A DNA stretch of 64,000 nt from Candidatus Berkelbacteria bacterium (GCA_037140515.1 JBAXEI010000002.1:39703-103702), one strand, 5' to 3'; positions 30,337-63,207 are shown, counted from the stretch's first letter. Notes: generated from the letters alone by a model not told the origin. Made by a program: numbers and translations.

Positions 30337-30347
30337 AGGAGAAAGCT

Positions 30348-30620
30348 ATGAAGACAAAATTAGATCCTAAAATTTTATCGCTTATCGGCGGCATCGCGGC
30401 CGTAGTCCTAGTGATTGGCGCATTTTTGTACATGTGGCAAAACGGTAAACCTGTAGCAGGGGAAAAAATAATCACAGATGTAAAATACAAGACTGTCGAA
30501 ATCGGTACGACTATTGCCGACGCCCAGATTATGATGAACAAATTATCGTCAAAAGCCACGCTACCAGTGACAGCACCGACAGCAGATAAAATTGGCAAAG
30601 ACAATCCATTTACTCCATAA
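30348..30620 (+). CDS. Small single-TM protein, possibly a PilP-like pilus accessory component.
   Basis: 90 aa with TM ILSLIGGIAAVVLVIGAFLYMW. Sits between the PilO-like gene and pilB. Confidence 0.35.
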   Translation: MKTKLDPKILSLIGGIAAVVLVIGAFLYMWQNGKPVAGEKIITDVKYKTVEIGTTIADAQIMMNKLSSKATLPVTAPTADKIGKDNPFTP

Positions 30621-30710
30621 ACTACGTATCTCTGACTTCCATCTAGAAAATTGTTTTGCTGAATAAAACAGTTTTGTTTCGGTAGAATTTAATCATCAAA
30701 AGTTTTTTGA

Positions 30711-33185: not shown

Positions 33186-33252
33186 CAAATTTCTTGCATG
33201 TGGAGAATAATATAGATATACTGTAAACAGAATATAAAGACTTTGGAGGGGT

Positions 33253-34320: not shown

Positions 34321-34343
34321 TATCAATTAATCACACCCAATAA

Positions 34344-35546
34344 ATGCCACGTTATCTTTACAAGGCAAAAAACAATAAGAGCGAGATTGTAACTGGTACA
34401 GTTCGCGCAGACAATCAGATCGAAGCTGAGAAGCTTTTGGTTCGGCATGACTTTGTGCCTATTGAGATTACACCAGAGCAGAAAAAAAGCTTTGGCTCTA
34501 TGCTTTTCAACAAAGTATCGGTCAAGGACAAGGCAGTTTTCTCGCGTCAGCTCGCTACAATGCTAAATGCTGGCTTACCACTGACCAAGGCGATCAGTAT
34601 TCTCGCAAAACAGGCAAAAACAGAGCATTTACGTCAAATATTTGTTGATATTTATACTGATCTTCAAGAAGGCTACAATTTTTCATCGGCCTTATCCAAG
34701 CATCCCGAGGCATTTGATCGTGTCTTTGTAAGTATCGTGAATTCCGGCGAAACGACCGGTAAACTCGACGTTGTTTTGAGCGAGCTAGCTGAGCAAATGG
34801 AAAATGATAGCTCATTTCTGAGCAAGGTTTACTCCGCGCTGTATTACCCTGCATTTATCTTTGTCGCACTTATCGGCGCTGCAGTAGTCATGATGATTAT
34901 GGTCGTCCCTAAGCTAAAAGGAATGTTTACCGAAAACGCGACCGAGCTGCCTGTAATTACGAAAATACTACTTTCTATGTCCGCCTTTATGGTTTCATAT
35001 TGGTGGCTACTTCTTATTATATTGGTCGCGCTTATAGTCTTTTTGAAATCGTGGCTCGGCACAGAGAAAGGTTCTAGAGCTATTCACTCTCTTCAGATTA
35101 CTATTCCAGGACTAAAAAATATCTTTGAAGGTATTTATATGTACCGCTTTACTAGGACACTGGCGATGCTTATTGGCGCTGGCGTCCCTTTGCTTGATGC
35201 GCTTCACATCAGCGCTACTGTTATGGATAATCCACTCTACGAAGACGCGATCAATCGTGTCTCCTCGCAGGTAGAAAAAGGTATGTCTCTATCTACTCAG
35301 CTCATGAAAGAAAAGTATTTTCCACCACTTGTCGGTAATATGGCGGCAGTTGGTGAAGAGACGGGTGAGCTGGATAAAGTTCTGATAAAAGTTTCTGAGT
35401 ACTACGCTCAGGCGACGTCTGATCTGACGAAGGCTGTGACTTCGCTTGTCGAACCAGCGGTCCTTTTGCTGGTCGCTGCTGGTGTTGTTTTTCTCGTATT
35501 TGCAATCTATATGCCAGTCATACAGATGAGTAATTTTGGTGGCTAA
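34344..35546 (+). CDS. pilC: Type IV pilus platform protein (PilC/GspF family).
   Basis: Two T2SSF repeats, three TM segments and conserved GxxLxxALxI regions. Confidence 0.9.
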   Translation: MPRYLYKAKNNKSEIVTGTVRADNQIEAEKLLVRHDFVPIEITPEQKKSFGSMLFNKVSVKDKAVFSRQLATMLNAGLPLTKAISILAKQAKTEHLRQIFVDIYTDLQEGYNFSSALSKHPEAFDRVFVSIVNSGETTGKLDVVLSELAEQMENDSSFLSKVYSALYYPAFIFVALIGAAVVMMIMVVPKLKGMFTENATELPVITKILLSMSAFMVSYWWLLLIILVALIVFLKSWLGTEKGSRAIHSLQITIPGLKNIFEGIYMYRFTRTLAMLIGAGVPLLDALHISATVMDNPLYEDAINRVSSQVEKGMSLSTQLMKEKYFPPLVGNMAAVGEETGELDKVLIKVSEYYAQATSDLTKAVTSLVEPAVLLLVAAGVVFLVFAIYMPVIQMSNFGG

Positions 35547-35715
35547 TATTTGCATGGTTTTTGGAAATAGCTTATAATATTTATAAATAAATTATCAATA
35601 TTAATGTCTTTGCTCGGTCGATCAAAGCTTTATATAAAAAATTTGCTTCTTGTTAAGCAGACTTGAAGCAAGCAGATATCTGCTTTTAGAAAATATGAAA
35701 ATGGAGGGAAGAAAA

Positions 35716-36177
35716 ATGAAAAAGTTAAAAGGTTTTACGCTTGTAGAGCTTTTGGTAGTTATCGCGGTCATTGGTATCTTGTCAGCTGTAGTTATCTTGA
35801 ACACAAACAGTGCCAAGGTAAAAGCTAGAGAAGCCAACATGAAGACAACTCTCGATACTGTCCAAAATATCGGTGTCTTGTGTGCTGACGGTACTACGGT
35901 TGGTAATCTAGATTCCGCTGACGCCTATGTTGCAAAGTCAACTGGTACGACAACGACTCCAGCTATTTGCAACGGTGCAAGTCCAGCTATCACTGATGTC
36001 TGGCCTGTACCTGAGTCTGGCTACTACTATGCAGTCAAGAGCGGTAGTTCCGCAGACCCTACACTCAAGGATTGGCGTATCTATGCTTCTAAGGTTGGAA
36101 CAGCAGGAACCTATGTTTCAACAGACACACCAGTGATAATGTGCTCTGCTTCGAAGTGTTCAACCAATGCGTTTTAG
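35716..36177 (+). CDS. Type IV major pilin (class III signal peptide).
   Basis: MKKLKGF/TLVELLVVIAVIGILSAVV prepilin leader with the G-1/F+1/E+5 signature. C-terminal Cys pair. GGAGGG RBS. The ORF track begins upstream at 35650. Confidence 0.85.
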   Translation: MKKLKGFTLVELLVVIAVIGILSAVVILNTNSAKVKAREANMKTTLDTVQNIGVLCADGTTVGNLDSADAYVAKSTGTTTTPAICNGASPAITDVWPVPESGYYYAVKSGSSADPTLKDWRIYASKVGTAGTYVSTDTPVIMCSASKCSTNAF

Positions 36178-36193
36178 TTTTACGTTCTTTTAC

Positions 36194-36217
36194 GTTCGGC
36201 AAAGATCTTTGCCGAAC
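36194..36217 (+). terminator. Perfect 24-bp palindrome/hairpin immediately after the pilin gene. A possible terminator or protein-binding site, though it lacks a T-run.
   Basis: gttcggcaaaga|tctttgccgaac. A 12-bp perfect inverted repeat centred on agatct. Confidence 0.35.
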
Positions 36218-36439
36218 TAAAAGAGGGCAAAGTTTACAAATAGATAGATAATCGAGAGTCGGGACTTGCGGCTTAGGACCAAGGGCTCGGTATTATATCT
36301 TGTCATCCCGTACTGCGGCATGAGATACGGGATCTTGAGCAAAATTTCAAAAAGTATACGCGCAAGATTCCTGCTTCCGCAGGAATGACATGAAAAAAGC
36401 TATCACTAACGCAAGCCCACTTGCAGAAATGGATTTACG

Positions 36440-37216
36440 ATGGATGCATACTATTTAATTTTCTTATTTATATTGGGCCTAGCGATCGGCTCTTTTCTAA
36501 ATGTCGTCATTTTCCGAATGGATGAGCTGAAGACGATTCTTTATGATCGTTCGCATTGCCCATCTTGCAAGAAAATACTCAAATGGTATGACCTAATTCC
36601 TTTTCTTTCATTTGTAATGCTCCGGGCGAAGTGCCGATATTGTGGTAAGGGGATTTCTTATCAATATCCTATAGTTGAGCTATGCACGGGACTACTATTT
36701 GCCTTTCTTTTCTTATTCTTTGGTATTAGCTGGACTCTAGTCGTCTACCTAATAATTTTTTGCATTCTTATTGTTGTCTTCGTTTATGACTTGAAGACAC
36801 AAACTGTGCCAGAGATATTCGTTTGGATCGCTCTAATACTGTCTGCGGCTTTTGGCTGGTACTTTGGCCATTTTAGTTTTATTGAAATGATTCTTGGTGG
36901 CTTGGTCGGCGGCGGATTTCTTGCAATATTGGTCTTGGCTTCGAAGGAAAAGTGGATGGGCGCCGGAGATATTAAGATCGGCTTGATCCTAGGCTTTTTG
37001 CTTGGCTACCCAAACGCACTGTTTGCTATGTTTTCTGCCTTTGTCCTTGGCTCGCTTGTCGGCCTCTTGTATGTCTATCTGAAAAATAAATCTATTAAGC
37101 GTGAATATCTGAAAGAATCTCTGCCTTTTGCACCATTTCTGATCTTCGCGACACTTATCGGTCTCGTTTATGGGCCACAGATTGTTGCATGGTATTTGGG
37201 CGGAATGTATTACTAA
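36440..37216 (+). CDS. pilD: Prepilin peptidase (A24 family, PilD).
   Basis: N-terminal CPSC...CRYC zinc motif. Catalytic Asp boxes VYDLKTQTVP and GAGDIKIG. Eight TM segments. Confidence 0.9.
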   Translation: MDAYYLIFLFILGLAIGSFLNVVIFRMDELKTILYDRSHCPSCKKILKWYDLIPFLSFVMLRAKCRYCGKGISYQYPIVELCTGLLFAFLFLFFGISWTLVVYLIIFCILIVVFVYDLKTQTVPEIFVWIALILSAAFGWYFGHFSFIEMILGGLVGGGFLAILVLASKEKWMGAGDIKIGLILGFLLGYPNALFAMFSAFVLGSLVGLLYVYLKNKSIKREYLKESLPFAPFLIFATLIGLVYGPQIVAWYLGGMYY

Positions 37217-37232
37217 AGCCTTGGAGGGCAAT

Positions 37233-37766
37233 ATGAAATCACGAAAAGCATTTACTCTCATCGAGCTACTGGTCGTCATTGCTGTGATCGGTATACTCTC
37301 TGCTGTAGTTGCTATCAGCACAAATGGCGCAAAGATAAAGGCTCGTGATGCACAGAGAAAAGGGGACCTGCTAAAAATTGCTTCTGCGCTGGAAATATAC
37401 AGAACGGATAATAAGTCCTATCCGTCATACTCGACTACTGCGAAACAGACTGTGCTTAATCTTGCACTTACTAATTCTCTAGTCCCCACATATCTCCCAA
37501 CCATGCCTACTGATCCTCAGAATAGCTCTTCTGTTTATTACGATCAGCAGTATGTATATACTTCTGATAGCACTACGGCGAATCCAGCCGTTCCAGTAAA
37601 ATCAACAAAATTCTCATTGTATGCTGTGCTCGAGAGGCCAAGCTCTGCCGACACTGCTACTGTACCAGTGCAGGCCACGACGTTGTGTCCAAAGTTTCCC
37701 TCCGGTAATCAAGTTTCTTCTCCTGTGAAATCGCCATCATATGCCGTAGTCGGAAATTGTAAATAA
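37233..37766 (+). CDS. Pilin-like/pseudopilin protein (minor pilin).
   Basis: MKSRKAFTLIELLVVIAVIGILSAVV prepilin leader. The ORF track starts at 37170, overlapping pilD. Confidence 0.75.
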   Translation: MKSRKAFTLIELLVVIAVIGILSAVVAISTNGAKIKARDAQRKGDLLKIASALEIYRTDNKSYPSYSTTAKQTVLNLALTNSLVPTYLPTMPTDPQNSSSVYYDQQYVYTSDSTTANPAVPVKSTKFSLYAVLERPSSADTATVPVQATTLCPKFPSGNQVSSPVKSPSYAVVGNCK

Positions 37767-38378
37767 ATGATGAAAAAGGCATACACACTAATCGAGCTTT
37801 TGGTCGTAATCTCCATAATCGGCTTTATGGCTATCTATTGTGTTCCTGCTTTTGCGAAGTTTGGCCGTAGTAGTGATTTCAAACAGAAGTCAGATGAGGT
37901 GAAAATTCTGATGCAGCGAACTTATGCGCTCTCCAGAAGCCCAGAAAATACGAGAGTACAGTACTATCGTATGAGGGTTGATAGTCAAGCGTTTGTTCTT
38001 GAGAGAACTGAAAAAGTCTCGCCTGTACTTTCTGCTGACTGGACTGAAGTCAGTCGAGTAGAGAAGCTGCTAAATAGTCCCGCAGGATCAGGTACGGCAA
38101 ATAACCTTCAAACAATTCAATGTGATAATGCACCCGGAAACACTGCTTGCGTGATACTTACATGTTCTGTCAATCCACAAAAGAAGTGTGATATCTCAAC
38201 TATTCCAACTGCGCCAATCACTACAATGTCCCAGATATCTCTTCGCGATTATAAAATATCTGGGATGAAAAACTTAGCCAACTTCACTTTCGAAGGAGTG
38301 AACAAGGATGGTGCTTATGATAGTGGCTTTAAGAGCAACAGCCCCTTTAATGTAGTGTTGACCTATACCCAAATATGA
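37767..38378 (+). CDS. Minor pilin/pseudopilin.
   Basis: MMKKAYTLIELLVVISIIGFMA prepilin leader. Confidence 0.7.
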   Translation: MMKKAYTLIELLVVISIIGFMAIYCVPAFAKFGRSSDFKQKSDEVKILMQRTYALSRSPENTRVQYYRMRVDSQAFVLERTEKVSPVLSADWTEVSRVEKLLNSPAGSGTANNLQTIQCDNAPGNTACVILTCSVNPQKKCDISTIPTAPITTMSQISLRDYKISGMKNLANFTFEGVNKDGAYDSGFKSNSPFNVVLTYTQI

Positions 38379-38944
38379 TGATGAAAAATACAAAAAAAGC
38401 TTTTAGTCTTATCGAAGTCCTGCTTGCAGCGACTATTATTGTGATACTACTCTATGCGCTTGTGGCAGCAGGCAGATCAGCTCTTCGGAACTCATCGTCA
38501 ATACATGAAAAAGCTCAAGCAATGTTACTGGCTCAGCAAGGTCTTGAGATTGTTCGTCAAATCCGTGATACAAATTGGATCGACGCAAATCAGCAGAATT
38601 GGAGCAACTTTTCCTTTGATACTACTGAAAAGTGGAGAGACAAAAGTGGCTCAGATATGAAAATTAAATTTGATTCACTTTCTGAGGCGAAGAGGCCATT
38701 CCTCGATGTTTTAGCCGCACCTGCCGATTATGAAATTATTTCCGTAGATAATCTTGAGTACCATAGGATAGTCAAGTATGTGAAGCTTGCTTCTGCAAAT
38801 ATGCCAGAGGGCATCGGTAGCGGAGGAGCGATCCAGCCCGCGGATAATGCCGTGAAGGTAACCGTCACCGTCAGCTGGGATACAGGGACACCACAATCGC
38901 TTAGCATCAGCGAAGTATTAACAAATTGGCGACCAAATTACTAA
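38375..38944 (+). CDS. Minor pilin/pseudopilin (PilW/GspJ-like).
   Basis: KKAFSLIEVLLAATIIVILL N-methylation-type leader. Overlaps the upstream gene by 4 nt. Confidence 0.65.
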   Translation: MMMKNTKKAFSLIEVLLAATIIVILLYALVAAGRSALRNSSSIHEKAQAMLLAQQGLEIVRQIRDTNWIDANQQNWSNFSFDTTEKWRDKSGSDMKIKFDSLSEAKRPFLDVLAAPADYEIISVDNLEYHRIVKYVKLASANMPEGIGSGGAIQPADNAVKVTVTVSWDTGTPQSLSISEVLTNWRPNY

Positions 38945-38945
38945 A

Positions 38946-39707
38946 ATGACTCAAAAAACCAACAAAAAATCAAAAGCGTTCACTCTTCTTGAGCTGCTAG
39001 TCGCCACAACTATTTTTGGCATTGTGATGATGATGGCGATGAGCGCTATTACAGATAGTGCAAACTATTTGGCGAAGCTCAAGGCGATGCGTGTTGCCTC
39101 TGAAGAATCCAGAAGAATTGCGGATATTCTTGGCGAAAATATCAAGAACGCAAATAGCGAGATTAGCGTCACGTTCACCTCTGGCGGTATAGTACATACT
39201 GGCGAGCTATACAAATCTGGCATAGCCTTATTTAGTTGTACAGCAGCTGGAGCGTGCGATGCTACTCATTCTACTATTTTCGACCAATCGATGAGCGATT
39301 CAAACGCAGCTGCATTTGGTGCAAACACTCTTGTTCTCGGCGAAAAAGACACTAGTGGCAATCTTGTTTACAAGGTGTATTACAATAATAAGGATGAAGC
39401 TGAGCCAAAGCTATACTATTGGGAAGGAAGTTCCTTGGTTCTTGACTATAATTTTTTTAGTACTCTGATGGTAGATGCAAACGTGATCGCAGGTGGTGCG
39501 GTTGCCGATCTCGATTTACAAAATAATATTATAATAAAATTTGGGGGATATGCACCAAATAGCGTTACTATGCTGGACTCTGCGCAGCGTCAGCAATCCT
39601 ATGTTTTTTACAATATAAACGTAAATACTCGCGGTACTGGCCTGAAACGGCAAGAGCTTTTCAATATCAACGTCTTGTCTGGCGTTACCTCTAGGAATTA
39701 TAACTAA
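38946..39707 (+). CDS. Minor pilin/pseudopilin.
   Basis: KSKAFTLLELLVATTIFGIVMMMAM leader. Confidence 0.7.
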   Translation: MTQKTNKKSKAFTLLELLVATTIFGIVMMMAMSAITDSANYLAKLKAMRVASEESRRIADILGENIKNANSEISVTFTSGGIVHTGELYKSGIALFSCTAAGACDATHSTIFDQSMSDSNAAAFGANTLVLGEKDTSGNLVYKVYYNNKDEAEPKLYYWEGSSLVLDYNFFSTLMVDANVIAGGAVADLDLQNNIIIKFGGYAPNSVTMLDSAQRQQSYVFYNINVNTRGTGLKRQELFNINVLSGVTSRNYN

Positions 39708-39806
39708 TGATCGGGCTACGTGTGCTGGTTTTCCAAGTAATTGCTTGCTAGTTTCACCATTTTGAGCTATTTTTAGATAGATAAACTATTTATTTTGGAG
39801 ATCACT

Positions 39807-40802
39807 ATGACAAAAAGAATATTCTCAGGCATTCAACCTAGCGGCATTATCCATCTGGGTAATTATCTCGGCGCGATCAAACAGTGGGTAGATACACAGG
39901 ATACAGCTGATCAAGCGATTTTTTGCGTTGTAGATCTTCATGCGATTACTGTTCCTCAGGATCCGAAGGCTCTGCAACAAAATATTCTAAACGCCGCTGC
40001 ACTCTACATCGCTTGCGGTGTGAATCCAGAAAAAGCCGTGATATATGTTCAGTCTAGTGTGCCACAACATTCTGAGCTGATGTGGATCCTGAACACAATC
40101 GCGACAATGGGCGAACTTTCACGGATGACTCAGTTCAAGGAGAAGTCTGCGAAGAATACAAATTCTGACTCTGTGGGTGTTGGTTTGTTCGACTATCCAG
40201 TACTGATGGCTGCTGACATCCTCCTATATGGTACAACTCACGTTCCTGTCGGTCATGATCAGAAACAGCATGTTGAGCTAGCTAGAGACTTGGCGCAGAG
40301 ATTCAATTCTCGATTTGGCGAGACTTTTGTAGTTCCAGAGCCAATAATCAAGAAAGAAAGCGCACGGATTATGGGACTTGATGATCCGACAAAGAAGATG
40401 AGCAAATCAGCTTCTTCACCGCTAAATTATATCGCGATGACTGATGATGCAGAGACAATCCGCAATAAGTTCAAGCGTGCTGTTACAGATTCTGGCAGCG
40501 AAATAGTTGCTCGTGAGGATAAGCCTGCTATCACAAATTTACTTAATATTCTGAGTGAAGTCTCTGGAAAATCAGTTGCAGAACTTGAGAAAAATTTTGC
40601 AGGCATTGGCTACGGTGATTTCAAGATGGCAGTCGCAGAGGCAGTTATCGAGTATCTCAAACCAATTCAGGACAAGTATTTCGAATTGTTGAAAGACGAG
40701 TCCAAGCTGAAAGCAATCTTGCGAGAAGGTGCCGAGCGAATCGCACCGATTGCCAAAAAAACGCTCAAAGAAGTTCAGGAAAAAGTAGGCTTGGGAATCT
40801 AA
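39807..40802 (+). CDS. trpS: Tryptophanyl-tRNA synthetase.
   Basis: Class I HIGH-like GIQPSGIIHLGNYLG and KMSKS motifs. GGAG RBS 7 nt upstream of the ATG at 39807 (the track begins at 39795). Confidence 0.9.
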   Translation: MTKRIFSGIQPSGIIHLGNYLGAIKQWVDTQDTADQAIFCVVDLHAITVPQDPKALQQNILNAAALYIACGVNPEKAVIYVQSSVPQHSELMWILNTIATMGELSRMTQFKEKSAKNTNSDSVGVGLFDYPVLMAADILLYGTTHVPVGHDQKQHVELARDLAQRFNSRFGETFVVPEPIIKKESARIMGLDDPTKKMSKSASSPLNYIAMTDDAETIRNKFKRAVTDSGSEIVAREDKPAITNLLNILSEVSGKSVAELEKNFAGIGYGDFKMAVAEAVIEYLKPIQDKYFELLKDESKLKAILREGAERIAPIAKKTLKEVQEKVGLGI

Positions 40803-40807
40803 TATAT

Positions 40808-41260
40808 ATGGATACAATTTACATAAATACAGATGGGGGATCGAGGGGCAATCCAGGGCCAGCGGGTATTGGAATCATCTTTTTTGATGACCAAAGCAAA
40901 CAGATGCATAGCCACAAGGAGTGTATTGGCGATGGCACAAATAATGAAGCGGAGTATACCGCCATCATCCGAGCACTTGAGATTTTGCTCAAAAGTAAAT
41001 GGTTTGCGGACAATAACTTGGCTGATAAAAAGGTGATTTGTCGTCTCGATTCGAAGCTTGTAGTCGAGCAGATAAATGGCAATTGGAAGGTGAAAGAAGC
41101 CCGTCTGAAGGACTACGTGACAAAAATCCGTGCAATGGTAGACCAGATGCATCTACATATCTCTTTTGTTCACATTCCTCGAGAAGAAAATTCTGCCGCT
41201 GACGCCTTGGTAAACCTTGCTCTGGACGAGCAGGCAAAGAATCTAAATAGCTTAACCTAA
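40808..41260 (+). CDS. rnhA: Ribonuclease HI.
   Basis: INTDGGSRGNPGPAGIGI, NNEAEYTAIIRALE and catalytic DSKLVV...HIPREEN..AD. Confidence 0.85.
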   Translation: MDTIYINTDGGSRGNPGPAGIGIIFFDDQSKQMHSHKECIGDGTNNEAEYTAIIRALEILLKSKWFADNNLADKKVICRLDSKLVVEQINGNWKVKEARLKDYVTKIRAMVDQMHLHISFVHIPREENSAADALVNLALDEQAKNLNSLT

Positions 41261-41267
41261 AAATATT

Positions 41268-41489
41268 ATGAAAATAACCGTACGCGTAATTCCAAACGCG
41301 AAAACGCTAAAAGTCGAGAAGCATAGCGATGGAACCTTGAAGGTCTGGGTCACTGGCAAGCCATTTCGTGGTGCTGCGACGCTAGAAGTGATTGACGCGC
41401 TATCTGCCTTTTACAAAATTCCAAAAAGTCTTATCACTATCGTAAAGGGTCTTACTTCACGAAATAAGGTTTTTGATATCGACAATTAG
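41268..41489 (+). CDS. DUF167/YggU-family small protein.
   Basis: ITVRVIPNAK...LKVWVTGKP.RGAATLEVIDALSAFYKIPKSLITIVKGLTSRNK matches the YggU pattern. Confidence 0.6.
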   Translation: MKITVRVIPNAKTLKVEKHSDGTLKVWVTGKPFRGAATLEVIDALSAFYKIPKSLITIVKGLTSRNKVFDIDN

Positions 41490-41553
41490 TTTTTCTAGAC
41501 CTGCTGTGAAATCGGGTGTATGATATAGAAGAACAAAAAATGGAGGGAAATAG

Positions 41554-42168
41554 ATGAAACTAAAAAAGGGTTTTACGCTCGTAGAACTTCTTGTCGTCAT
41601 TGCAGTGATCGGCATTCTTTCTGCTGTTGTAGTTCTAAATACAAACAGTGCAAAGAGTAAAGCACGTGACGCGATCAGGCTTTCTGATATGGCTACTTTG
41701 AAGACGTCTTTAGGCTTATATTTAGAAGCAAATGGAAAATACCCTGACCAGCGTCCGAGCCCTGATCCAAGCACGACTTGTTTGACGAACTGTGTTATCA
41801 GCCGTAGCGACACAGCTATGGATGGTAATCCCGGTAAGTATATTTCCGACATGGATACGTATTTCCCAGGTGGCCTCCCAAACGATCCGATAAATAAGTC
41901 AAACGGATCTGGCAATTATTTTTATTCGTATCAAGCTATTGTAGTAGTTTCCGCGGTTTCGCCACCATGTGATGTCTCAAAATATTCTCGTCGCATTCTT
42001 TTGGGCGTAAGGACCTTTGAATCAATACCTGCTTATACACGTCATCCGAAAAGTCCGATTCAAGAAGCACAGGCAGAATGTTGGCCATCAGCTAATGACT
42101 CAACCTGGGTAACAAATGGTAGCAATATGCTGCGAGAATGGGGATACACAGTTCTTGAAGAGAAATAA
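41554..42168 (+). CDS. Type IV major pilin, paralog of 35716..36177.
   Basis: MKLKKGFTLVELLVVIAVIGILSAVVVLNTNSAKSKARDA is nearly identical to the N-terminus of the other pilin. Same AAAATGGAGGGAA leader. Confidence 0.85.
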   Translation: MKLKKGFTLVELLVVIAVIGILSAVVVLNTNSAKSKARDAIRLSDMATLKTSLGLYLEANGKYPDQRPSPDPSTTCLTNCVISRSDTAMDGNPGKYISDMDTYFPGGLPNDPINKSNGSGNYFYSYQAIVVVSAVSPPCDVSKYSRRILLGVRTFESIPAYTRHPKSPIQEAQAECWPSANDSTWVTNGSNMLREWGYTVLEEK

Positions 42169-55459: not shown

Positions 55460-55696
55460 ATGAGGGAAGAAAAATTCTGCTGTCCAAACTTAGATTGTGG
55501 CTTTACTAGCTACAATAGTGGTGAGTGTCCTGAGTGTGGAAAAGAATTGGACAAGATCAAAGGCGACGATTATGCATCTTTCAATAGCGAAACAGAAGAA
55601 GACAGTCCAGCAGAAGTAATGATGAGCGACTTCGACGATGATCCAGACGTGACGTCTTGGTATAAGGACGAAGAAGGCTCATATTCAGCCATGTAA
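55460..55696 (+). CDS. Small zinc-ribbon protein with a highly acidic C-terminus.
   Basis: CPNLDCG...CPECG 4-Cys ribbon. D/E-rich tail. Has its own promoter and terminator. Confidence 0.5.
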   Translation: MREEKFCCPNLDCGFTSYNSGECPECGKELDKIKGDDYASFNSETEEDSPAEVMMSDFDDDPDVTSWYKDEEGSYSAM

Positions 55697-55805: not shown

Positions 55806-57152
55806 ATGAAACTATACAACACGCTGTCGGCTAAAATTGAAGAATTCAAAACTATCGAGGGCAAGAAAATCCGAATGTACACATGCGGTCCAACAGTTTA
55901 TGATACCGCCCATATTGGCAATCTCCGCAAATACCTTTGCGACGATATTTTGGTGCGATTGCTCAAATTTGAAGGTTCTGAGATCAAGAGAGTAATGAAT
56001 ATTACTGATATCGATGACAAGACGATCAAGCGTGCTGAGGGCGTCAAAAAAGATTTTGATATTTTAATCAGAAAATACGAAAATCAGTTTCTTGCAGATC
56101 TAGATTCTCTAAATGTTTTACGACCAGACAAAGTAACGCGTGCGACTGAGTATGTCGAGGACATGGCGGCTTTTGTTGAGGACCTTTTGAAAAAGGGCTT
56201 TGCTTATAAAACTTCTGATGGCTCTGTATATTTCTCTCTCGAAAAGTTCCCATCTTACGGAGAGCTTTCAAAGCTGGATAAGCGCGAGATTAAGGTCGGA
56301 GCTAGAATAAATTCTGATGAATATGAGAAGGAGAATCCTTCCGACTTCGTGATCTGGAAGGCTTGGGATGAAGCTGATGGAGAGATTTTTTGGAACACTT
56401 CACTCGGCAAGGGTCGTCCAGGTTGGCACCTAGAGTGCTCGACAATGAGCATGAAGGAGCTCGGCGAAACGATCGATATTCATACTGGCGGTATTGATAA
56501 TATTTTTCCGCATCATGAAAATGAAATTGCTCAATCTGAAGCCCGAAGCGGTAAGAAGTTTGTAAACTTCTGGGTTCATAGCGAAATGTTGATGGTAGAT
56601 AGTCGCAAGATGAGCAAAAGCTTGAATAATTTTTATAAATTGGCCGACATTATCGAAAAAGGATATTCTCCAATGGACTTTCGATATTTGGTGCTTACTG
56701 CCCAATATCGTTCTAAGCTAAACTTCACCTGGGATGGTTTGGAATCTGCAAAAAACAGCCGCGCTCGTCTAGTGCGCTTGGTTCAGGAGTTCGCAAAGGC
56801 AGATAAGGGCGAAGCTAATGAAGGTTACATTGCAAAATTCAAAACATATTTGGAAAATGATATTGATCTGCCAAATGCAATCGCTGTCCTTTGGGAAGTT
56901 GCTCGCGATGAGAGTATTTTTGCTGGATCGAGATATGCAACAATGCTTAGGTTTGATGAGGTGCTTGGCTTGAAGCTTGGCGAAAAAGATGCTCTTGAAA
57001 TCCCAGCAAATATTCTAGAAATCGCAAATGAAAGAAAAGCAGCACGAGAGAACAAAGATTACGCCAAATCTGATGAATTACGGGATAAGATTGCGGCTCT
57101 TGGCTATATAATCGAAGACAAAAACAATGAGTTCACAATCTCTCCAAAATAA
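55806..57152 (+). CDS. cysS: Cysteinyl-tRNA synthetase.
   Basis: CGPTVYDTAHIGN (HIGH-class) and KMSKSLNN. Confidence 0.9.
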   Translation: MKLYNTLSAKIEEFKTIEGKKIRMYTCGPTVYDTAHIGNLRKYLCDDILVRLLKFEGSEIKRVMNITDIDDKTIKRAEGVKKDFDILIRKYENQFLADLDSLNVLRPDKVTRATEYVEDMAAFVEDLLKKGFAYKTSDGSVYFSLEKFPSYGELSKLDKREIKVGARINSDEYEKENPSDFVIWKAWDEADGEIFWNTSLGKGRPGWHLECSTMSMKELGETIDIHTGGIDNIFPHHENEIAQSEARSGKKFVNFWVHSEMLMVDSRKMSKSLNNFYKLADIIEKGYSPMDFRYLVLTAQYRSKLNFTWDGLESAKNSRARLVRLVQEFAKADKGEANEGYIAKFKTYLENDIDLPNAIAVLWEVARDESIFAGSRYATMLRFDEVLGLKLGEKDALEIPANILEIANERKAARENKDYAKSDELRDKIAALGYIIEDKNNEFTISPK

Positions 57153-58131
57153 TTTTTGGAACAAACTACATAAACCGTTTAAGGTGCTCGCACCGATGGC
57201 TGGCTATACTGACAGCGCTTTTCGGTTGCTTTGCCGCGAGCTTGGCGCTGATGTGGTTGTTTCAGAGCTAGTCTCAGCTGATGCGATTTTTCATCAATCA
57301 AAATATTGGTACAAAGATGAAAATAACACTTGGCTTTCAAAGCGCGGCAAAGATGAAACACTTGAAATGTTGAAGTTTGACGAGGCGGAACGGCCATATG
57401 TTATTCAGCTTTTTGGTAAATTTCCAGATAAGTTTGCTTTCGCCGCGAAGTGGGTGAGCGAAAATTTGAGACCCGATGGGATTGACATCAATATGGGCTG
57501 TCCAGCCAGAAAAGTCGTAAATAGCGATCATGGTGCCGCACTCCTGAAAAATCCTGAGCTAGCGGTACAAATCGTGAAAGCGGTCAAAGAAAATACCGAT
57601 TTGCCAGTTTCGGTAAAAACGCGCCTTGGTTGGGACCATGATGATCAGATACTCGAATTCGCGCCGCAATTGCTGCGTGCTGGGATCAGCGCACTGACGA
57701 TTCACGGCAGAACCTATAAAGACGCCTTCAAAGGCGCCGCTCGTTGGGACAATATTTATGAAGTCAAAAAGATGTTTGGCGATGAGCTAATCGTAATCGG
57801 TAACGGCGATATATCATCGTATGAACAATTAAGCACTTTAGCAAAAGATCCTTTTGGCGAGACAAGGCTTGACGGCTTGATGGTCGGCCGGGCCGCCTTT
57901 GGCAAGCCTTGGATCTTTTCGAAAGAAAGTATGACAAATGATGAACTGAAGATGATTATTTTGAAACAAGCACGATATATGTTAAAAATTAAGGGAGATT
58001 TCGGCATGATCGAGTTCCGAAAGCACCTTGTGAAATATATCACTGGCTTCGTAGGAGCTAAGGATCTACGAAAGAAGGCAGTGACCGTTACAAGTTTTGA
58101 AGACGTTGAGAGCCTAGTGAGCGAACTTTAG
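57127..58131 (+). CDS. dus: tRNA-dihydrouridine synthase.
   Basis: LAPMAGYTDSAFR, DINMGCPARKV and HGRT. Overlaps the cysS end by 26 nt. Confidence 0.85.
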   Translation: MSSQSLQNNFWNKLHKPFKVLAPMAGYTDSAFRLLCRELGADVVVSELVSADAIFHQSKYWYKDENNTWLSKRGKDETLEMLKFDEAERPYVIQLFGKFPDKFAFAAKWVSENLRPDGIDINMGCPARKVVNSDHGAALLKNPELAVQIVKAVKENTDLPVSVKTRLGWDHDDQILEFAPQLLRAGISALTIHGRTYKDAFKGAARWDNIYEVKKMFGDELIVIGNGDISSYEQLSTLAKDPFGETRLDGLMVGRAAFGKPWIFSKESMTNDELKMIILKQARYMLKIKGDFGMIEFRKHLVKYITGFVGAKDLRKKAVTVTSFEDVESLVSEL

Positions 58132-58141
58132 ACACGAGGTA

Positions 58142-58170
58142 TTGACATAGTTGAGGATTTGTGGTAAAAT
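58142..58170 (+). promoter_or_regulatory. Near-consensus promoter with an extended -10. It has no adjacent CDS, so it is a candidate sRNA promoter.
   Basis: TTGACA, 17-nt spacer, TGgTAAAAT. Located 11 nt after the dus stop and 520 nt upstream of the next CDS. Confidence 0.5.
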
Positions 58171-58422
58171 TGCTCTAACAAGGGGAAATTTACCCGACAT
58201 CAAAGACAATCTATAGAAGTTTGCTTGTAGCAAGGATGGGGATCGTGCTGGACAGATTGTTTATCTGTGCGTACGTCAAAAACCTTGCTTTTTTGTTTTC
58301 TTATTTCTGACTGGGATCTTGGGATATTAGGATGATAGATTTATAGATTGACCGGCAATGAAGGTCCGTTAAAAAAAGTGGATCTGGCTAAGTTAGTCTC
58401 TGTCATTTCTCACCTTTCTCCT

Positions 58423-58453
58423 GGTTAGAACTAAGCGCGCAAAACAAGCAAAT
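58423..58453 (+). repeat. 31-bp direct repeat, copy 1 (ggttagaactaagcgcgcaaaacaagcaaat).
   Basis: Exact 31/31 identity with 58520..58550. Confidence 0.8.
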
Positions 58454-58519
58454 TCATGAATAAATTTCATCGTCTGGATCCCACCTCTCAAGCCACAGGC
58501 TGGGATGACAGGAAGGGGA

Positions 58520-58550
58520 GGTTAGAACTAAGCGCGCAAAACAAGCAAAT
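58520..58550 (+). repeat. 31-bp direct repeat, copy 2.
   Basis: Exact copy. 66 bp separate the two copies. Confidence 0.8.
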
Positions 58551-58690
58551 AATTTTGATAAGAATGTGATGGTTTCATACTATTCATGCTTATCAAAATA
58601 AAACTCATGAAAATGAGTTGATAACGCAACTGACTTTGTGAATCGAAGATTTGCAAAGTAGTATCCCAAAATTTGTTTGGAGGAAATGCC

Positions 58691-59803
58691 ATGAAGCTTA
58701 TCACAACAGCTTGTCTGGTCATCTTATTACTTGTAGTGGCTCTTGCACCTGTGAGAGCTTCTGTAGCAAGTAGCATTGCAGCACCGCTGTACAACAGTAC
58801 AACGGTCCTGAATAATGCCGGGTTTAATCCGGTGGTCAAGTCCGCGGCTAGCGCCGAGAACAAGACTCCGGACGCAACATTACGTACAGGCACTTGGAGC
58901 ACGAACATCATTGTTCCGAAGTCCAGTGCAATGGCGCAGTTTAGATTTTTACTCATCGACATGAAAATTCAGGGTTTCGACCTTGGAAAATATACTGGAG
59001 TGAAAGTAAAAATCGACGACTCGATGATCAGCAAAGAGTCGATCAATCCTAATAAGTTAAAATCCGAATCAAAAAAAGGCGAAGTCTATGCAAACCCCGA
59101 AGGGGCTTACAAAGGCTCAACCCAATTTTGTAAGGGAAATTTGACACAGGGAGCTTTAACGCTTCGCGCCGACGGCGTTTTAGTTGTAGACACTAGCAAG
59201 CTGGATTTAGACCAGTACTGCTTAGAGTTTTCGCTAACTCACGAAGGCAAAGTAGTTAAAGATGATTGGCTCATCTGGATTCACATCACTAATCGTGAAA
59301 AGATGACAGACACCAATTCGTTTTACTTTACCCTTGTCAATCCTTCCAACTATCTTGACGATTACTGTCAGGCACAAGCCGGCACAAATTATCAGGATTC
59401 AGTTGGAAGACTCCAATCGGTTGCATTTTCGTCATATTATGATGAAATATTGAAACCGTATTGGAACTTGATCGATACCCCGATTTCTGCCAACTTAAAG
59501 GCAAATGCGCTTTGGCGCGATGTCAATAATGAGGCGAAGCCCCTGCAAAATACTGCTCCCGTCACAAAGGATTGTACCCATTGGGTACGACTCCAGAAGG
59601 ACGGAAAAGCGTTTAGCGGTTGGGTGAATCTGAAGGTGTCGGAAAATCAGGATGAACCTTCTTTGATCCAAGGCCCATTGATTCTTTTCAATGGTGCTAA
59701 GGTCGGTCCACAGAAAATGTGGATAAGAGAAGAAGGCAAGGATGCTTGGACGGTAAAAGTTATCGATGTCCGCCCGAATGGCGTGACCACAGTGACCCTG
59801 TAA
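58691..59803 (+). CDS. Secreted protein of unknown function (signal peptide).
   Basis: MKLITTACLVILLLVVALAPVRASVA. GGAGG RBS 7 nt upstream of the ATG at 58691 (the track starts at a TTG at 58673). GC-richer than neighbouring genes. Confidence 0.65.
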   Translation: MKLITTACLVILLLVVALAPVRASVASSIAAPLYNSTTVLNNAGFNPVVKSAASAENKTPDATLRTGTWSTNIIVPKSSAMAQFRFLLIDMKIQGFDLGKYTGVKVKIDDSMISKESINPNKLKSESKKGEVYANPEGAYKGSTQFCKGNLTQGALTLRADGVLVVDTSKLDLDQYCLEFSLTHEGKVVKDDWLIWIHITNREKMTDTNSFYFTLVNPSNYLDDYCQAQAGTNYQDSVGRLQSVAFSSYYDEILKPYWNLIDTPISANLKANALWRDVNNEAKPLQNTAPVTKDCTHWVRLQKDGKAFSGWVNLKVSENQDEPSLIQGPLILFNGAKVGPQKMWIREEGKDAWTVKVIDVRPNGVTTVTL

Positions 59804-59810
59804 GGAGGGC

Positions 59811-60725
59811 GTGATGAGTAAATTCCTAACTTTGGCCATGGCGCTACTGCTTGCAGTGGCCTCGTGGTCCGCCCGTCCCGCGGGCGAACTTCCCTTATTT
59901 GACAAAATCTGCCACACGAACCCTGTTCTTGAACGGGGTCTCGGTCCAGAAATCGTCACAAAGGGTTATTCTATCCAGGCACTTGGTCGCTATGATCGCG
60001 ATGGTAGACCGATGACTTATTATGAGTCATGGACTTCCGGACGGTCCGGCGAAGTGACCTGGTGTCGTTTCCGTGTTGGTGAAGCAGTCGAAGCAAAGAA
60101 AACAGGAGTTCGAGACATAGTTCTCGAAAAAATCCTTTTCGGCGTAGAGACCTGGGAAGCCAAACGAATCGTCCGATGTGGCAATCCTACAGCAATAACT
60201 TTCTATTTATGGAAAGTAAAACCTGTGGCAGCCTCAAAAAACGGTTTAAACGGTAAAAACGGCCGAAACGGTCATGACGGTAAACCCGGTCCAAAAGGTG
60301 ATCGTGGCGAAACCGGCCGACCAGGCCGAGATGGAGTTGACGGCAAAGATGGTGCACAAGGCGAACAAGGACCTCCAGGTCCTCCTGCCGAAGTGTATTA
60401 TCCGCCGCAAACCCCCTTACCTCCAGTTTTAACCAATGAGTCATACGCACCCGAATTTCGGGTAAACTATGGCTCAAGCGAATTTCGCCAAGGTCTTCAG
60501 ATCTTTGGCGCGATCGCGATCGTCCCAACACCTGCTCCTGGCAAGGATGGGCTGAATGGTCAAAACGGGAAAAACGGTTTAAACGGTAACAATGGCAATA
60601 ACGGCTTAAACGGCCTACCTGGCCCAGCCGGTCCTCAGGGACCCGCCGGCCCATGTGGTCCAGTTGGTCCGACATATTGCCCGCCACTGCCAATCGGCAC
60701 AACCCCGCCACAACCTAATCTTTAG
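59811..60725 (+). CDS. Secreted collagen-like (Gly-X-Y triple-helix repeat) protein.
   Basis: Signal peptide. Two Gly-X-Y tracts of roughly 17 and 14 triplets, e.g. GKPGPKGDRGETGRPGRDGVDGKDGAQGEQGPPGPP and GKDGLNGQNGKNGLNGNNGNNGLNGLPGPAGPQGPAGPCGPVGP. Pro-rich C-terminus. AGGAGGG RBS. Confidence 0.75.
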   Translation: MMSKFLTLAMALLLAVASWSARPAGELPLFDKICHTNPVLERGLGPEIVTKGYSIQALGRYDRDGRPMTYYESWTSGRSGEVTWCRFRVGEAVEAKKTGVRDIVLEKILFGVETWEAKRIVRCGNPTAITFYLWKVKPVAASKNGLNGKNGRNGHDGKPGPKGDRGETGRPGRDGVDGKDGAQGEQGPPGPPAEVYYPPQTPLPPVLTNESYAPEFRVNYGSSEFRQGLQIFGAIAIVPTPAPGKDGLNGQNGKNGLNGNNGNNGLNGLPGPAGPQGPAGPCGPVGPTYCPPLPIGTTPPQPNL

Positions 60726-60884
60726 GTTTCTGGCACAATTATCCGAGGAACACTCTCTCTAAGTGAAAGAGTGTTCCCACATCTTAAGACAATAATTGAT
60801 TTTATTGCCTTAAGTATGTGAAAATACACGTAGAAAATTTTATTATCAAAGCTACGAAAAAAACACTATTAATTAGGAGAAAAA

Positions 60885-62072
60885 ATGAACTGTACTGAAA
60901 ACAAAACCAGCACAAAGTCAAAAATCGCTATTGCGCTTTTGGCGGTCGCTGGAGTCTTAGCAGGCGTATTGGCACCATTGGCTTCGGTCAAAGCTGTTGA
61001 TACTGTCGGCCCACGTTTCAACGTCTTGCCAGATGATTACAAGACTTTGCGCGGTGGAAACAAAACAAAAAATGAGCTGTCGAGAAATGCAGTAGTAACT
61101 GGCGTTGCTGGTGATACTGTCTCTGGCTTGGTCTATTACCACAATGATGTCTTGAACACCACTGCCAATAACACCAAAGTCAAAGTAACTTTTCCTGCAC
61201 AGACAACAAATAAAAAAGCGACTGTTTCTGTAAATCTGTCTGCTGACAATGCTGAAAACATTATCAACGACACGATGGAGATTCAGTTGGATCAGGACGC
61301 AAAACTAACATTCGTCCAGGGTTCAGTTCAGTGGTTACCAAACTTCACTGATACGACTAAGCCTGCTGTTGCCCTTCCAAACGGTCAAACAGGTAACGAA
61401 ATTATCACTCCAAATGGTGTTAATCTCGGTGGTATCAACGGTTGTTGGAATTATATCGGTTATGTCTATTTCTTAGTCAAAACTGATAAAATCGACCAAA
61501 AATTACCGGCTCTGAAGATTGAGAAAACTGTTCGTGACTTTACCGTAAATGAAGCAACTTTTGTAAAAGAGAATGAAGCCAAACCAGGCGATGTTCTTGA
61601 ATACAAGATCAGCTATTCAAATACAGGTGAAGGCCCAGCTGCAAACGTAACTGTAAGTGACGTTTTGCCAGCAAATGTAACATATCTTGCCAACACAACT
61701 GTTCTAAACGACGGTACTGGTGAGAAAATGGTTGCAGATGGTATCGCTCAAAGTGGTATCAGCCTTGGCGCAATTGCCAACGGCACTTCGGGCTATGTAA
61801 AGTTCAAAGCCCAAATCAGTTCTACTGTTGCTGCGGATCAAACATTGACGAATACTGGTTATCTTCTGTTCAACAAGCAAAACTTGTCTGATACAGCGAA
61901 AACCAAAATCGTAGTCAGTGTGATCGTCACTCCGGGTCAGCCTGGTGCTGGCAATCCATTGCCTCAGACTGGTGCAGAGACTTATATCATCACTGCGTTA
62001 ATCGTAGCTGCTGGATATGTCACTGCTAAATATCTGAAAAAAAGAAAAGAACTCGCAGAGTTGATCAAATAA
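60885..62072 (+). CDS. Cell-wall-anchored surface protein with a DUF11 repeat domain and a C-terminal LPQTG sortase sorting signal.
   Basis: Signal peptide. DUF11-like region GDVLEYKISYSNTGEGPAANVTVSDVLPANVTYL. C-terminal LPQTGAETYIITALIVAAGYVTAKYLKKRKEL, read as LPxTG plus a hydrophobic stretch plus a positively charged tail. Confidence 0.8.
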   Translation: MNCTENKTSTKSKIAIALLAVAGVLAGVLAPLASVKAVDTVGPRFNVLPDDYKTLRGGNKTKNELSRNAVVTGVAGDTVSGLVYYHNDVLNTTANNTKVKVTFPAQTTNKKATVSVNLSADNAENIINDTMEIQLDQDAKLTFVQGSVQWLPNFTDTTKPAVALPNGQTGNEIITPNGVNLGGINGCWNYIGYVYFLVKTDKIDQKLPALKIEKTVRDFTVNEATFVKENEAKPGDVLEYKISYSNTGEGPAANVTVSDVLPANVTYLANTTVLNDGTGEKMVADGIAQSGISLGAIANGTSGYVKFKAQISSTVAADQTLTNTGYLLFNKQNLSDTAKTKIVVSVIVTPGQPGAGNPLPQTGAETYIITALIVAAGYVTAKYLKKRKELAELIK

Positions 62073-62091
62073 CTTTGTAGAGAATATATAC

Positions 62092-62130
62092 AAAACCGCT
62101 CCGACTTATGTTGGGGCGGTTTTGTTTTGT
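62092..62130 (+). terminator. Rho-independent terminator.
   Basis: aaaccgctcc...ggggcggttt stem, followed by TTTGTTTTG. Confidence 0.55.
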
Positions 62131-62172: not shown

Positions 62173-63207
62173 ATGGGATTGAAAGAAAAGCTCGAAGATC
62201 TAAAGATGATCTTGAAAATCGATAAGAAAAAATCTGAAATCGCTCAGATCGAAAAAGAGATGAATGAGCCTGATTTTTGGTTGGATGAAAAAAACGCTAA
62301 CGAAAAAAGTCGCAAACTGAAGAATCTGAAGGACGAAATCAAAGAGTTTATGGACGTTTATGAGATCGCTGAGATTGCTAACGACGAAGAGTTGGAGTCG
62401 ATGCGAGACGAGATCGAGAAGCTTGAGCTCTACTCAATGTTTACAGGCAAATACGATGATCATAATGCGATTATTAACTTTTACGCTGGCGCAGGTGGCG
62501 ATGATGCCCAAGATTGGACCGAAATGTTGCTGAAGATGTATTTGCGTTGGGCAGAAAGCAATGGCTTCCGTGCGATGATTATCAACGAATCACGTGGCAC
62601 AGAAGCGGGGATAAAGAGCGCCACGATCGAAGTTCATGGTCTCTATGCCTATGGAAAACTGAAGGTGGAATCTGGGGTGCATCGGCTTGTCAGACAGTCC
62701 CCATTTAACGCAAAAGCGCTTCGTCAGACATCTTTTGCCCTTGTTCAGGTGTTGCCCGAGATTGAGCAAGAAACAGAGCTTATAATCGATTCTAAGGACA
62801 TTCGGATGGACGTCTTTCGGTCCGGTGGCAATGGCGGACAATCAGTCAATACGACTGATTCGGCTGTGCGTCTGACGCATATTCCAACAGGGATTGTAGT
62901 CGGCTGTCAGAATGAGCGAAGCCAGTTACAAAATCGTGAAAATGCGATGAAAGTACTTCGTTCGCGATTGGCCCAGCTTATGCTTGAGCAACAAAAGGAG
63001 CGCTTGGAGGAGCTAAAAGGCGATTTCTCTTCGCCAGAGTGGGGAAATCAGATTCGTTCTTATGTTCTTCATCCGTACAAAATGGTCAAGGATCATCGAA
63101 CTAATTTCGAGTCCAAAAATCCAGACGATGTTTTGGCAGGAAACTTGAATGGCTTCATTGAGGCTCAGCTCAGACAGCTGATGAAATCAAAAACGACTGT
63201 TGAATAA
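62173..63207 (+). CDS. prfB: Peptide chain release factor 2, encoded as one uninterrupted ORF with no +1 programmed frameshift site.
   Basis: SPF tripeptide (RQSPFNA) and GGQ motif. Ends ...HPYKMVKDHRT. Confidence 0.9.
   Translation: MGLKEKLEDLKMILKIDKKKSEIAQIEKEMNEPDFWLDEKNANEKSRKLKNLKDEIKEFMDVYEIAEIANDEELESMRDEIEKLELYSMFTGKYDDHNAIINFYAGAGGDDAQDWTEMLLKMYLRWAESNGFRAMIINESRGTEAGIKSATIEVHGLYAYGKLKVESGVHRLVRQSPFNAKALRQTSFALVQVLPEIEQETELIIDSKDIRMDVFRSGGNGGQSVNTTDSAVRLTHIPTGIVVGCQNERSQLQNRENAMKVLRSRLAQLMLEQQKERLEELKGDFSSPEWGNQIRSYVLHPYKMVKDHRTNFESKNPDDVLAGNLNGFIEAQLRQLMKSKTTVE

Follow-up and report, generated by a model that had tools for sequence, protein, structure and literature searches.

The collagen-binding adhesins CNA, ACE and Cnm (MSCRAMMs) carry two IgG-like domains that wrap the collagen triple helix, and highly expressed surface-layer genes are known to have long structured 5´ leaders, in which a strong promoter and a long structured untranslated region precede a codon-biased surface gene. 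The streptococcal collagen-like proteins Scl1 and Scl2 (NF038329, NF038330) combine a hypervariable globular head with GXY stalks of variable length. Another group of surface proteins, the LPXTG fibrillar adhesins, contains the domain DUF11 (PF01345), which has now been renamed CLIPPER, and in the crystal structure 9IFR of this domain an isopeptide between Lys and Asn with a nearby Asp has been demonstrated (10.1101/2025.04.25.650565). In Bacillus, the BclA/L-BclA fibrils are reported to be encoded in a small gene cluster and to be mounted on a basal structure that is encoded separately (bioRxiv 10.1101/2023.10.23.563578). How the ultra-small bacteria of the candidate phyla radiation (CPR, Patescibacteria) recognise their partners and attach to them is largely unknown, and the work on CPR attachment has so far centred on type IV pili (PMC11623550). 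Here we present a locus on a 64,000-nucleotide stretch of DNA from a Candidatus Berkelbacteria bacterium (GCA_037140515.1, JBAXEI010000002.1:39703-103702), called the window below, in which the genes dus (57127-58131) and prfB (62173-63207) enclose three open reading frames (ORFs) on the same strand (the plus strand, as for the other parts of the locus given below): ORF1 (58691-59803), ORF2 (59814-60725) and ORF3 (60885-62072). An earlier note on this DNA, made from the sequence alone, had read the block as three genes for secreted or surface proteins, one of them an LPXTG-type sortase substrate (ORF3). This reading was upheld: the three ORFs are real, and their translations all begin with signal-peptide-like N-termini. 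The note had also proposed that the block is a horizontally acquired islet, and here our interpretation differs. We consider it probable, although with considerable reservation, that the block is a clade-specific surface operon, inherited vertically in a Berkelbacteria-like bacterium (Patescibacteria), with a constant stalk protein and swappable secreted partners, and not an inserted island.

ORF3 encodes a stalk protein of 395 amino acids that is probably anchored to the wall. It passes the cut-offs of both CLIPPER/DUF11 models (PF01345 with 38.7 bits, cut-off 24.6; TIGR01451 with 51 bits, cut-off 24). The signal peptide is followed by an N-terminal beta-sandwich (61002-61499), the CLIPPER domain (61512-61910) and an LPQTG motif (61959-61973, residues 359-363), whose L, P, T and G vary little or not at all among the homologues; after the motif come ETYIITALIVAAGYVTA and KYLKKRK, that is, a transmembrane segment and a KKRK tail. 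An AlphaFold2 (AF2) model computed with 24 homologues reached a mean predicted confidence (pLDDT) of 85 and contains two beta-sandwiches, one at residues 40-205 and one at 210-342, flanked by the signal helix and the C-terminal transmembrane helix. In the 24 homologues K214, D259 and N323 of the CLIPPER domain are invariant. A profile of ORF3 and its homologues matched 9IFR (E = 0.0036), and an Asp of the matched stretch aligned with D259; from its place in the construct we take this residue to be the catalytic Asp-748. Like the CLIPPER adhesins described (10.1101/2025.04.25.650565; 9IFR), ORF3 keeps a Lys/Asp/Asn triad. Unlike them, it has a single CLIPPER domain and not a long tandem stalk, its N-terminal beta-sandwich is clade-specific and without family assignment, and it is encoded in a CPR bacterium beside two anchorless secreted partners.

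A Foldseek search with the ORF3 model retrieved Gram-positive adhesins (Sgo0707, ACE/CNA/Cnm and the C-domains of AgI/II) as well as integrin leg domains, all with low TM-scores. The two tandem beta-sandwiches and the collagen-like gene next door are reminiscent of the MSCRAMMs, which matched the model with E ~1e-5; however, the TM-scores to these are only 0.21-0.29, and the ORF3 proteins of close relatives are 94-97% identical to that of the window though their ORF2 is nearly without collagen. Against PDB and BFVD, Foldseek returned only generic tandem Ig-like adhesins (TM 0.2-0.3), and no specific ligand could be inferred for ORF3. We also considered a thioester domain in the N-terminal domain, which contains an invariant C187 and a nearly invariant Q168. 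This was rejected, since the Cys is located C-terminal to the Gln, the opposite of the order in known thioester domains, and no family matched.

ORF2 encodes a secreted mosaic protein of 303 amino acids with a collagen match (PF01391, 60.8 bits, cut-off 27.2). A signal peptide and a head domain, here termed type A (to 60242), are followed by a first GXY run of 16 triplets (60243-60386), a middle module (ESYAPEFRVNxGSSEFRQGLQI), a second GXY run of 15 triplets (60540-60674) and a Cys/Pro-rich tail (YCPPLPxGTxPPQPNL); the module between the runs and the tail are both conserved among relatives. The C-terminus (...PPQPNL) contains neither a hydrophobic anchor nor a sorting signal. With Scl1 and Scl2, ORF2 shares the hypervariable globular head and the GXY stalks of variable length, but it scores far below the cut-offs of the two families (61.8 against 325 and 35.9 against 400), has no LPXTG, splits its GXY region in two by a conserved non-collagen module and ends in a conserved Cys/Pro-rich tail. 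The BclA/L-BclA system (10.1101/2023.10.23.563578) resembles the locus in that an anchorless collagen-like protein is encoded beside its would-be carrier. It differs in being a spore system and in lacking homology outside the GXY repeats, and for ORF2 the attachment is only a presumption.

The position and content of the locus are conserved across the clade. For the synteny search, one genome of each species (GTDB species representatives) was probed with dus, and dus and prfB had to lie within 10 kb; the loci of relatives compared with the window carry labels such as L001, L014, L081 and L091. All 14 GTDB loci with both flanks had the gene order recR-zn-cysS-dus-surface genes-prfB, and in all of them the gap between dus and prfB was filled (3.8-8.6 kb), with dus identities of 39-66%. 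The gap contains a signal-peptide protein of about 340-470 amino acids, then a protein of about 220-320 amino acids, sometimes with GXY runs, and then one or two DUF11/LPXTG proteins. A homologue of ORF3 was located directly 5´ of prfB in 13 of the 14, and iterated hidden Markov model (HMM) searches together with hhalign tied some, not all, of the proteins at the corresponding positions to ORF1 and ORF2. Closer relatives (L081, L082, L085, L091, L098, L099) have these three genes in unchanged order, L088-L091 are among the loci sharing the gene order, and every metagenome relative recovered carries the same arrangement of surface genes between dus and prfB. An empty dus-prfB site was not found among the loci examined. 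The earlier note had itself named a block conserved between dus and prfB in all relatives as evidence against acquisition, and this is what the comparison with sister genomes revealed.

The third gene of the block differs from the other two in its constancy. The ORF3 proteins of close relatives are 93-97% identical to that of the window, and the genes show a synonymous divergence (dS) of 0.24-0.49, which is 0.26-0.49 of the dS of prfB in all pairs, and the synonymous divergence of ORF3 is 2-4 times below that of the flanking housekeeping genes (L081, L082, L085, L091). In addition, ORF3 favours the codons ATC, GGT, ACT and AAC and avoids GTG, ATA, GGG and AAG, a pattern that looks like an expression-linked bias and not like foreign origin. 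The low synonymous divergence together with the distinct codon bias suggests that ORF3 is highly expressed.

ORF1 and most of ORF2 behave differently. ORF1 encodes a secreted orphan protein of 370 amino acids with a signal peptide ending in VRA. It had no match in Pfam, NCBIfam, PHROG or PDB, including a PDB profile search; among 5.8 billion clusters only five homologues were found, and an exhaustive HMMER search of 1.84 billion proteins found four cluster representatives, none of them annotated. The contigs with ORF1 homologues belong to genus-level relatives, in which recR, cysS, dus and prfB have the same order and 88-98% protein identity. ORF1 itself is only 60-68% identical to its genus-level counterparts and 91% identical to that of L091, and weak profile matches connect it with the gene that stands first in the locus of distant relatives. 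Compared with L081, nucleotide identity is 0.75-0.93 in the flanks, 0.29-0.72 from 58459 to 60709 and 0.85-0.97 in ORF3. Nonsynonymous divergence (dN) amounts to 0.24-0.70 for ORF1 and ORF2, with synonymous sites saturated, versus 0.01-0.07 for the flanks and ORF3.

The edges of this divergent region are sharp. On the left, nucleotide identity to the relatives collapses from a 31-nucleotide repeat upstream of ORF1 onward. With L091, identity is about 0.82 across ORF1, drops to 0.2-0.5 along the greater part of ORF2 and rises again at about 60660. Between L091 and L082, ORF3 is nearly identical (dS 0.09) and ORF1 only 66% identical. The nearest relatives of the window all have an ORF2 with a non-homologous head, type B, and lack head A, whereas head A is 62% identical in L088, 55% in L089/L090 and 50% in L001, lineages of which L088 and L090 have housekeeping proteins only 37-59% identical to those of the window (61-64% in L001). 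The GXY runs of the ORF2 relatives also vary in length, from none or about four triplets up to 16. Sharp breakpoints and incongruent gene trees lead us to conclude, from the sequences compared, that ORF1 and the ORF2 head are a recombining variable cassette within a conserved locus, in which the ORF1 of the window is one variable allele. Of the proposal in the earlier note, a narrower form of horizontal exchange is therefore retained, namely that of ORF1 and ORF2-head alleles by recombination inside the locus, while acquisition of the whole block is not.

In two distant lineages (L088 8984-11457, L089 955-3554) we observed that three small genes for secreted proteins are retained in front of prfB, among them one for a homologue of ORF2 head A. 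In both lineages the third gene is short (197-237 amino acids) and has no CLIPPER match, and in L088 dus is missing as well.

Upstream of the three genes, the noncoding region contains a structured RNA. Directly past the dus stop lies a sigma-70-like promoter (TTGACA-17-TAAAAT with an upstream TG, 58142-58170) that agrees with the consensus at 11 of 12 positions; a promoter of the form TTGACA-N17-TAnnnT was found 43-138 nucleotides 5´ of the RNA hairpin in 19 of 20 loci examined and is absent in L014. It is followed by a variable 5´ leader domain (58176-58300) with a GC hairpin, GCAAGG...CCUUGC around ACAGAU/AUCUGU, and then a U-run. This domain folds with -34.4 kcal/mol (z = -2.7), and compensatory changes in its inner hairpin were seen in L081 and L086; its sequence is kept in close relatives only, and a hairpin with a U-run is present at the same place in distant loci. 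The extended-hairpin RNA itself (58292-58460, about 150 nucleotides) consists of five helices with 49 base pairs in all and ends in an apical loop rich in A, and conserved G-U pairs fix it to the plus strand.

By nhmmer and a covariance model the RNA was found even in loci where protein identity to the window is only 40-65%. Among 18 sequences, 30 of the 49 pairs showed compensatory changes. With 41 distinct sequences the number rose to 36 of 49, with 95.6% of the cells paired; this alignment was fitted to the covariance model and thus leans toward the structure, but an independent MAFFT alignment agreed with it. None of 500 shuffles reached the value of the 41 sequences, and slid controls were 39-56% paired. 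A pattern scan of metagenome contigs yielded 31 further loci, all confirmed by the covariance model and all in the context between dus and a surface gene. Each locus has a single copy of the RNA, which invariably lies after dus and ahead of the first surface gene (L001-L018, L026, L081-L122), and the next long ORF begins 56-375 nucleotides downstream. In Rfam 15 no family reached its gathering score in the window, the best matches below the threshold being unrelated microRNA models (E 0.08-0.4), and in the literature we found nothing on this RNA or on the locus. It is a well-supported structured motif that Rfam 15 does not contain; it is confined to this lineage and goes together with a surface-protein operon. 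Most likely, in our view, the RNA acts as a structured 5´ leader that stabilises or controls the mRNA. With a strong promoter, an untranslated region that is long and structured, and a surface-protein gene of biased codon usage, the locus recalls the leaders of surface-layer genes, although this RNA has no sequence or structure relation to any described leader and its own leader role is putative.

Several identities for the RNA were tried and rejected. Signal recognition particle (SRP) RNA, 6S RNA, tmRNA and RNase P gave no Rfam or ARAGORN match, and by eye the RNA contains neither the GNRA-tetraloop core of the SRP RNA nor a large central bubble of the 6S type. A small leader ORF starting at the AUG in AAGGAUGGGG was dismissed since its frame is not conserved: in L003 it stops immediately, and L010 and L012 have no AUG.

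The proposal of a GC-richer island, acquired from a foreign donor and inserted between dus and prfB, drew on base composition, codon usage and a repeat. The GC content of the block is indeed slightly raised (0.455 versus 0.423 for the window), about 1.6 standard deviations above the mean for windows of equal size, of which 6.6% reach this value or more; another region attains 0.470, and the region from 10.7 to 16 kb is GC-richer than the block. Only one of the genes stands out, however: GC is 0.450, 0.523 and 0.426 for ORF1, ORF2 and ORF3, and the excess in ORF2 is confined to the first and second codon positions (0.626 and 0.521; Gly/Pro codons), which identifies the amino-acid composition as its source. 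At third positions (GC3) the values are 0.477, 0.423 and 0.384, none of them outside the range of 0.29-0.49 seen in the window. When each gene was simulated from its own amino-acid sequence under the synonymous codon usage of the window, the GC3 z-scores were 3.1, 1.1 and -0.1, normal for ORF2 and ORF3, with prfB itself at 2.6. Synonymous codon usage as a whole does deviate, as the earlier note had seen (z = 3.6, 7.4 and 5.0, all other genes in the window <=3.4), but the shift is not one of GC. A Gly/Pro-rich gene can thus mimic a compositional island. The repeat-rich upstream region that the note had taken as a boundary does contain a perfect 31-nucleotide direct repeat (58423-58453 and 58520-58550). 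It lies entirely 5´ of the block and is a duplicated RNA arm, the first copy forming the 3´ arm at the base of the hairpin and the second being its duplicate, and not an attachment-site-like pair around the block; no repeat pair flanks the three genes. The block and its neighbours contain no integrase or transposase domain, no tRNA was found, and homologues come only from the same clade. Together with the block being at the same position in every relative with both flanks, down to 39% dus identity, this makes a foreign island very improbable, and synteny refutes it. A prophage remnant with tail-fibre-like proteins is even less credible. Many tail-fibre families of PHROG are matched by ORF2, the best with E = 6e-15, but every one of these matches lies within the GXY repeats (residues 124-203 and 218-288). 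ORF1, ORF3 and the ORF2 with head B match no PHROG family, a tblastn search with ORF1 against 50,697 phage records gave no match, other phage genes are missing, and the chromosomal synteny is stable.

ORF1 and ORF2 might instead merely evolve fast in place, under relaxed or diversifying selection and without exchange of alleles. In favour of this, the ORF1 family is tiny, and the distant positional counterparts are barely recognisable (hhalign probabilities 57-96%). It is contradicted by the conflicting relationships of ORF1 and ORF3 among the window, L091 and L082, by two non-homologous ORF2 heads within one genus-level group, by a head that is 50-62% identical in lineages whose housekeeping proteins are 37-59% identical, by the sharp identity breakpoints and by low dN/dS at saturated synonymous differences, and we regard it as improbable. 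We give as little credence to a sortase-assembled pilus operon with ORF3 as the polymerised pilin and ORF1 and ORF2 as accessory or tip subunits. Pilins have LPXTG-type signals and isopeptide-type domains, and ORF3 carries LPQTG and a CnaA-like domain of the isopeptide type; some relatives moreover have two tandem ORF3 paralogues. Yet ORF3 is the only LPXTG protein in the window, ORF1 and ORF2 are without sorting signal, no sortase gene is adjacent or within the window, and no YPK(N)-type pilin motif was seen in the ORF3 sequence. The alternative we take most seriously concerns the RNA, which could be a small RNA of the housekeeping type, independent of the surface genes and no more than their neighbour. 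In favour of this, it has a consensus promoter of its own, is conserved far better than the downstream genes, is separated from the promoter by a hairpin and U-run, and is followed in the window by a second promoter-like site. But in most loci no terminator separates the RNA from the first gene, the RNA matches neither 6S, SRP, tmRNA or RNase P nor any other Rfam family, and it always lies directly 5´ of the surface genes, even where an extra gene of about 260 amino acids has been inserted after dus (L014 11094-11891, L016 11018-11812, L018 11153-11935) and the RNA has stayed with the surface genes. We therefore think an independent small RNA possible but unlikely.

Some observations also weigh against a vertically inherited surface operon with a constant stalk and exchangeable partners, or against parts of it. 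The LPXTG model TIGR01167 scores 13.5 bits on ORF3, under its cut-off of 15.9, and the 64-kb window contains no sortase gene; sortases are reported to be common in CPR (PMC6851277). The low dS of ORF3 could stem from constraint at the RNA level instead of high expression. For ORF1, an AF2 model computed with its five homologues was unusable (pLDDT 38), and dN/dS of 0.05-0.18 gives no direct sign of positive selection, with synonymous sites saturated in most pairs; these ratios argue for alleles that are old, kept and passed between lineages, and not for pervasive positive selection. That ORF1 and ORF2 bind ORF3 or the wall is argued only from co-location and from the conserved C-terminus of ORF2. 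Finally, there is a second promoter-like site 3´ of the RNA and another before ORF3, so that the RNA could be transcribed separately and the genes may not all belong to a single operon.

With the surface operon as our preferred interpretation, we propose the following mechanism. ORF3 would be the constant and probably abundant part, exported by the Sec pathway and then linked to the wall through LPQTG by a sortase encoded elsewhere. Its second domain, CLIPPER, probably contains a stabilising isopeptide between K214 and N323, with D259 as the catalyst. The variable part would consist of ORF1 and ORF2, both secreted and neither with an anchor of its own. ORF2 might form a short collagen-like trimer that presumably docks onto the constant surface part by its conserved C-terminal module, with head domain and stalk length varying by lineage. 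ORF1 and the ORF2 head would be swapped across lineages by homologous recombination through conserved flanks, the leader RNA upstream and the ORF2 C-terminus and ORF3 downstream, and at the head of the operon the conserved strong promoter and the 150-nucleotide extended-hairpin RNA would be placed. The selective cause is likely to be the recognition of partner or host cells, or evasion of these or of phages. A locus at a fixed position throughout the clade that combines a conserved, presumably wall-anchored protein with swappable secreted proteins is a concrete candidate for host-range determinants. More speculatively, and with distinct doubts on our part, the locus might determine the partner specificity of an episymbiotic CPR lineage: an abundant, constant ORF3 stalk anchored to the wall would display exchangeable recognition proteins, namely ORF1 and, on a collagen stalk whose length varies, the ORF2 head, which recombination would shuffle among lineages; the leader RNA, of a class not described before, would govern expression and serve as the upstream anchor for recombination, and its duplicated 3´ arm would mark past exchanges.

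The 31-nucleotide repeat differs in copy number among the relatives. One copy is present in L081, two in the window, L085 and L086, and at least four units of about 62 nucleotides in L082 (1-400). Its place is the left edge of the variable cassette, and it may therefore be a recombination scar or a source of alternative pairing partners. Between the repeat and ORF1 lies a proximal control region (58552-58622), in which a promoter-like site (TTGATA-17-TACTAT, 58555-58583) is situated within an inverted repeat with arms of 15 nucleotides (58552-58566 and 58585-58599), followed by a small hairpin. The region is kept in close relatives, and its hairpin shows compensatory changes (AACUCAU/AUGAGUU versus AACCAU/AUGGUU).

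Two gene starts were corrected. ORF1 starts at ATG 58691, preceded by GGAGG at a distance of 8 nucleotides, and not at TTG 58673; its homologues begin at the same Met. For ORF2 the start was moved to ATG 59814, directly past the ORF1 stop, with the Shine-Dalgarno sequence GGAGGG at 59804-59809. Between ORF2 and ORF3 (60747-60825) a 12-bp hairpin (60747-60777) is followed by the promoter-like site TTGATT-17-TGtGAAAAT (60796-60825), and this region was kept in all five close relatives aligned. An intrinsic terminator (62090-62125) with a 16-bp stem containing eight G-C pairs, a 4-nucleotide loop and a T-run closes the block ahead of prfB, where the earlier note had placed one. The long antisense ORFs it had mentioned were also found, with 144, 154 and 174 amino acids.

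The block is embedded in a run of housekeeping genes on the same strand, with recR, a gene for a 78-amino-acid zinc-ribbon protein, cysS and dus on the 5´ side and prfB, an M50B peptidase gene and further genes on the 3´ side. The closest matches of dus and the other flanking genes are from Patescibacteria metagenome-assembled genomes, two of them labelled Berkelbacteria, with identities of only 53-66%. Programmed +1 frameshifts are common in genes for release factor 2. Here prfB is one uninterrupted ORF of 344 amino acids with a PCRF domain from residue 20, and no sign of such a frameshift was seen within the ORF.

Elsewhere in the window, a single ORF of 4017 amino acids (17013-29066) encodes a giant surface protein with four Laminin_G_3 (concanavalin-like) stretches and matches to DUF2341 and beta-propeller-like domains. 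It is preceded by three consecutive ORFs of 884, 847 and 316 amino acids without Pfam match (10717-13371, 13374-15917 and 15896-16846), of which the first two have an unusually high GC content at second codon positions (0.54); in these two the window is richest in GC. A type IV pilus cluster (29806-42168) encodes two T2SSE ATPases, T2SSF, a PilO-like protein and a prepilin peptidase, and six further products carry an N-terminal methylation motif; genes for tRNA synthetase (trpS/tyrS type) and RNase H interrupt the cluster. The zinc-ribbon protein between recR and cysS (55460-55696; CxxC...CxxC with an acidic tail) keeps its position across the clade, and its dS versus L081 is low (0.39).

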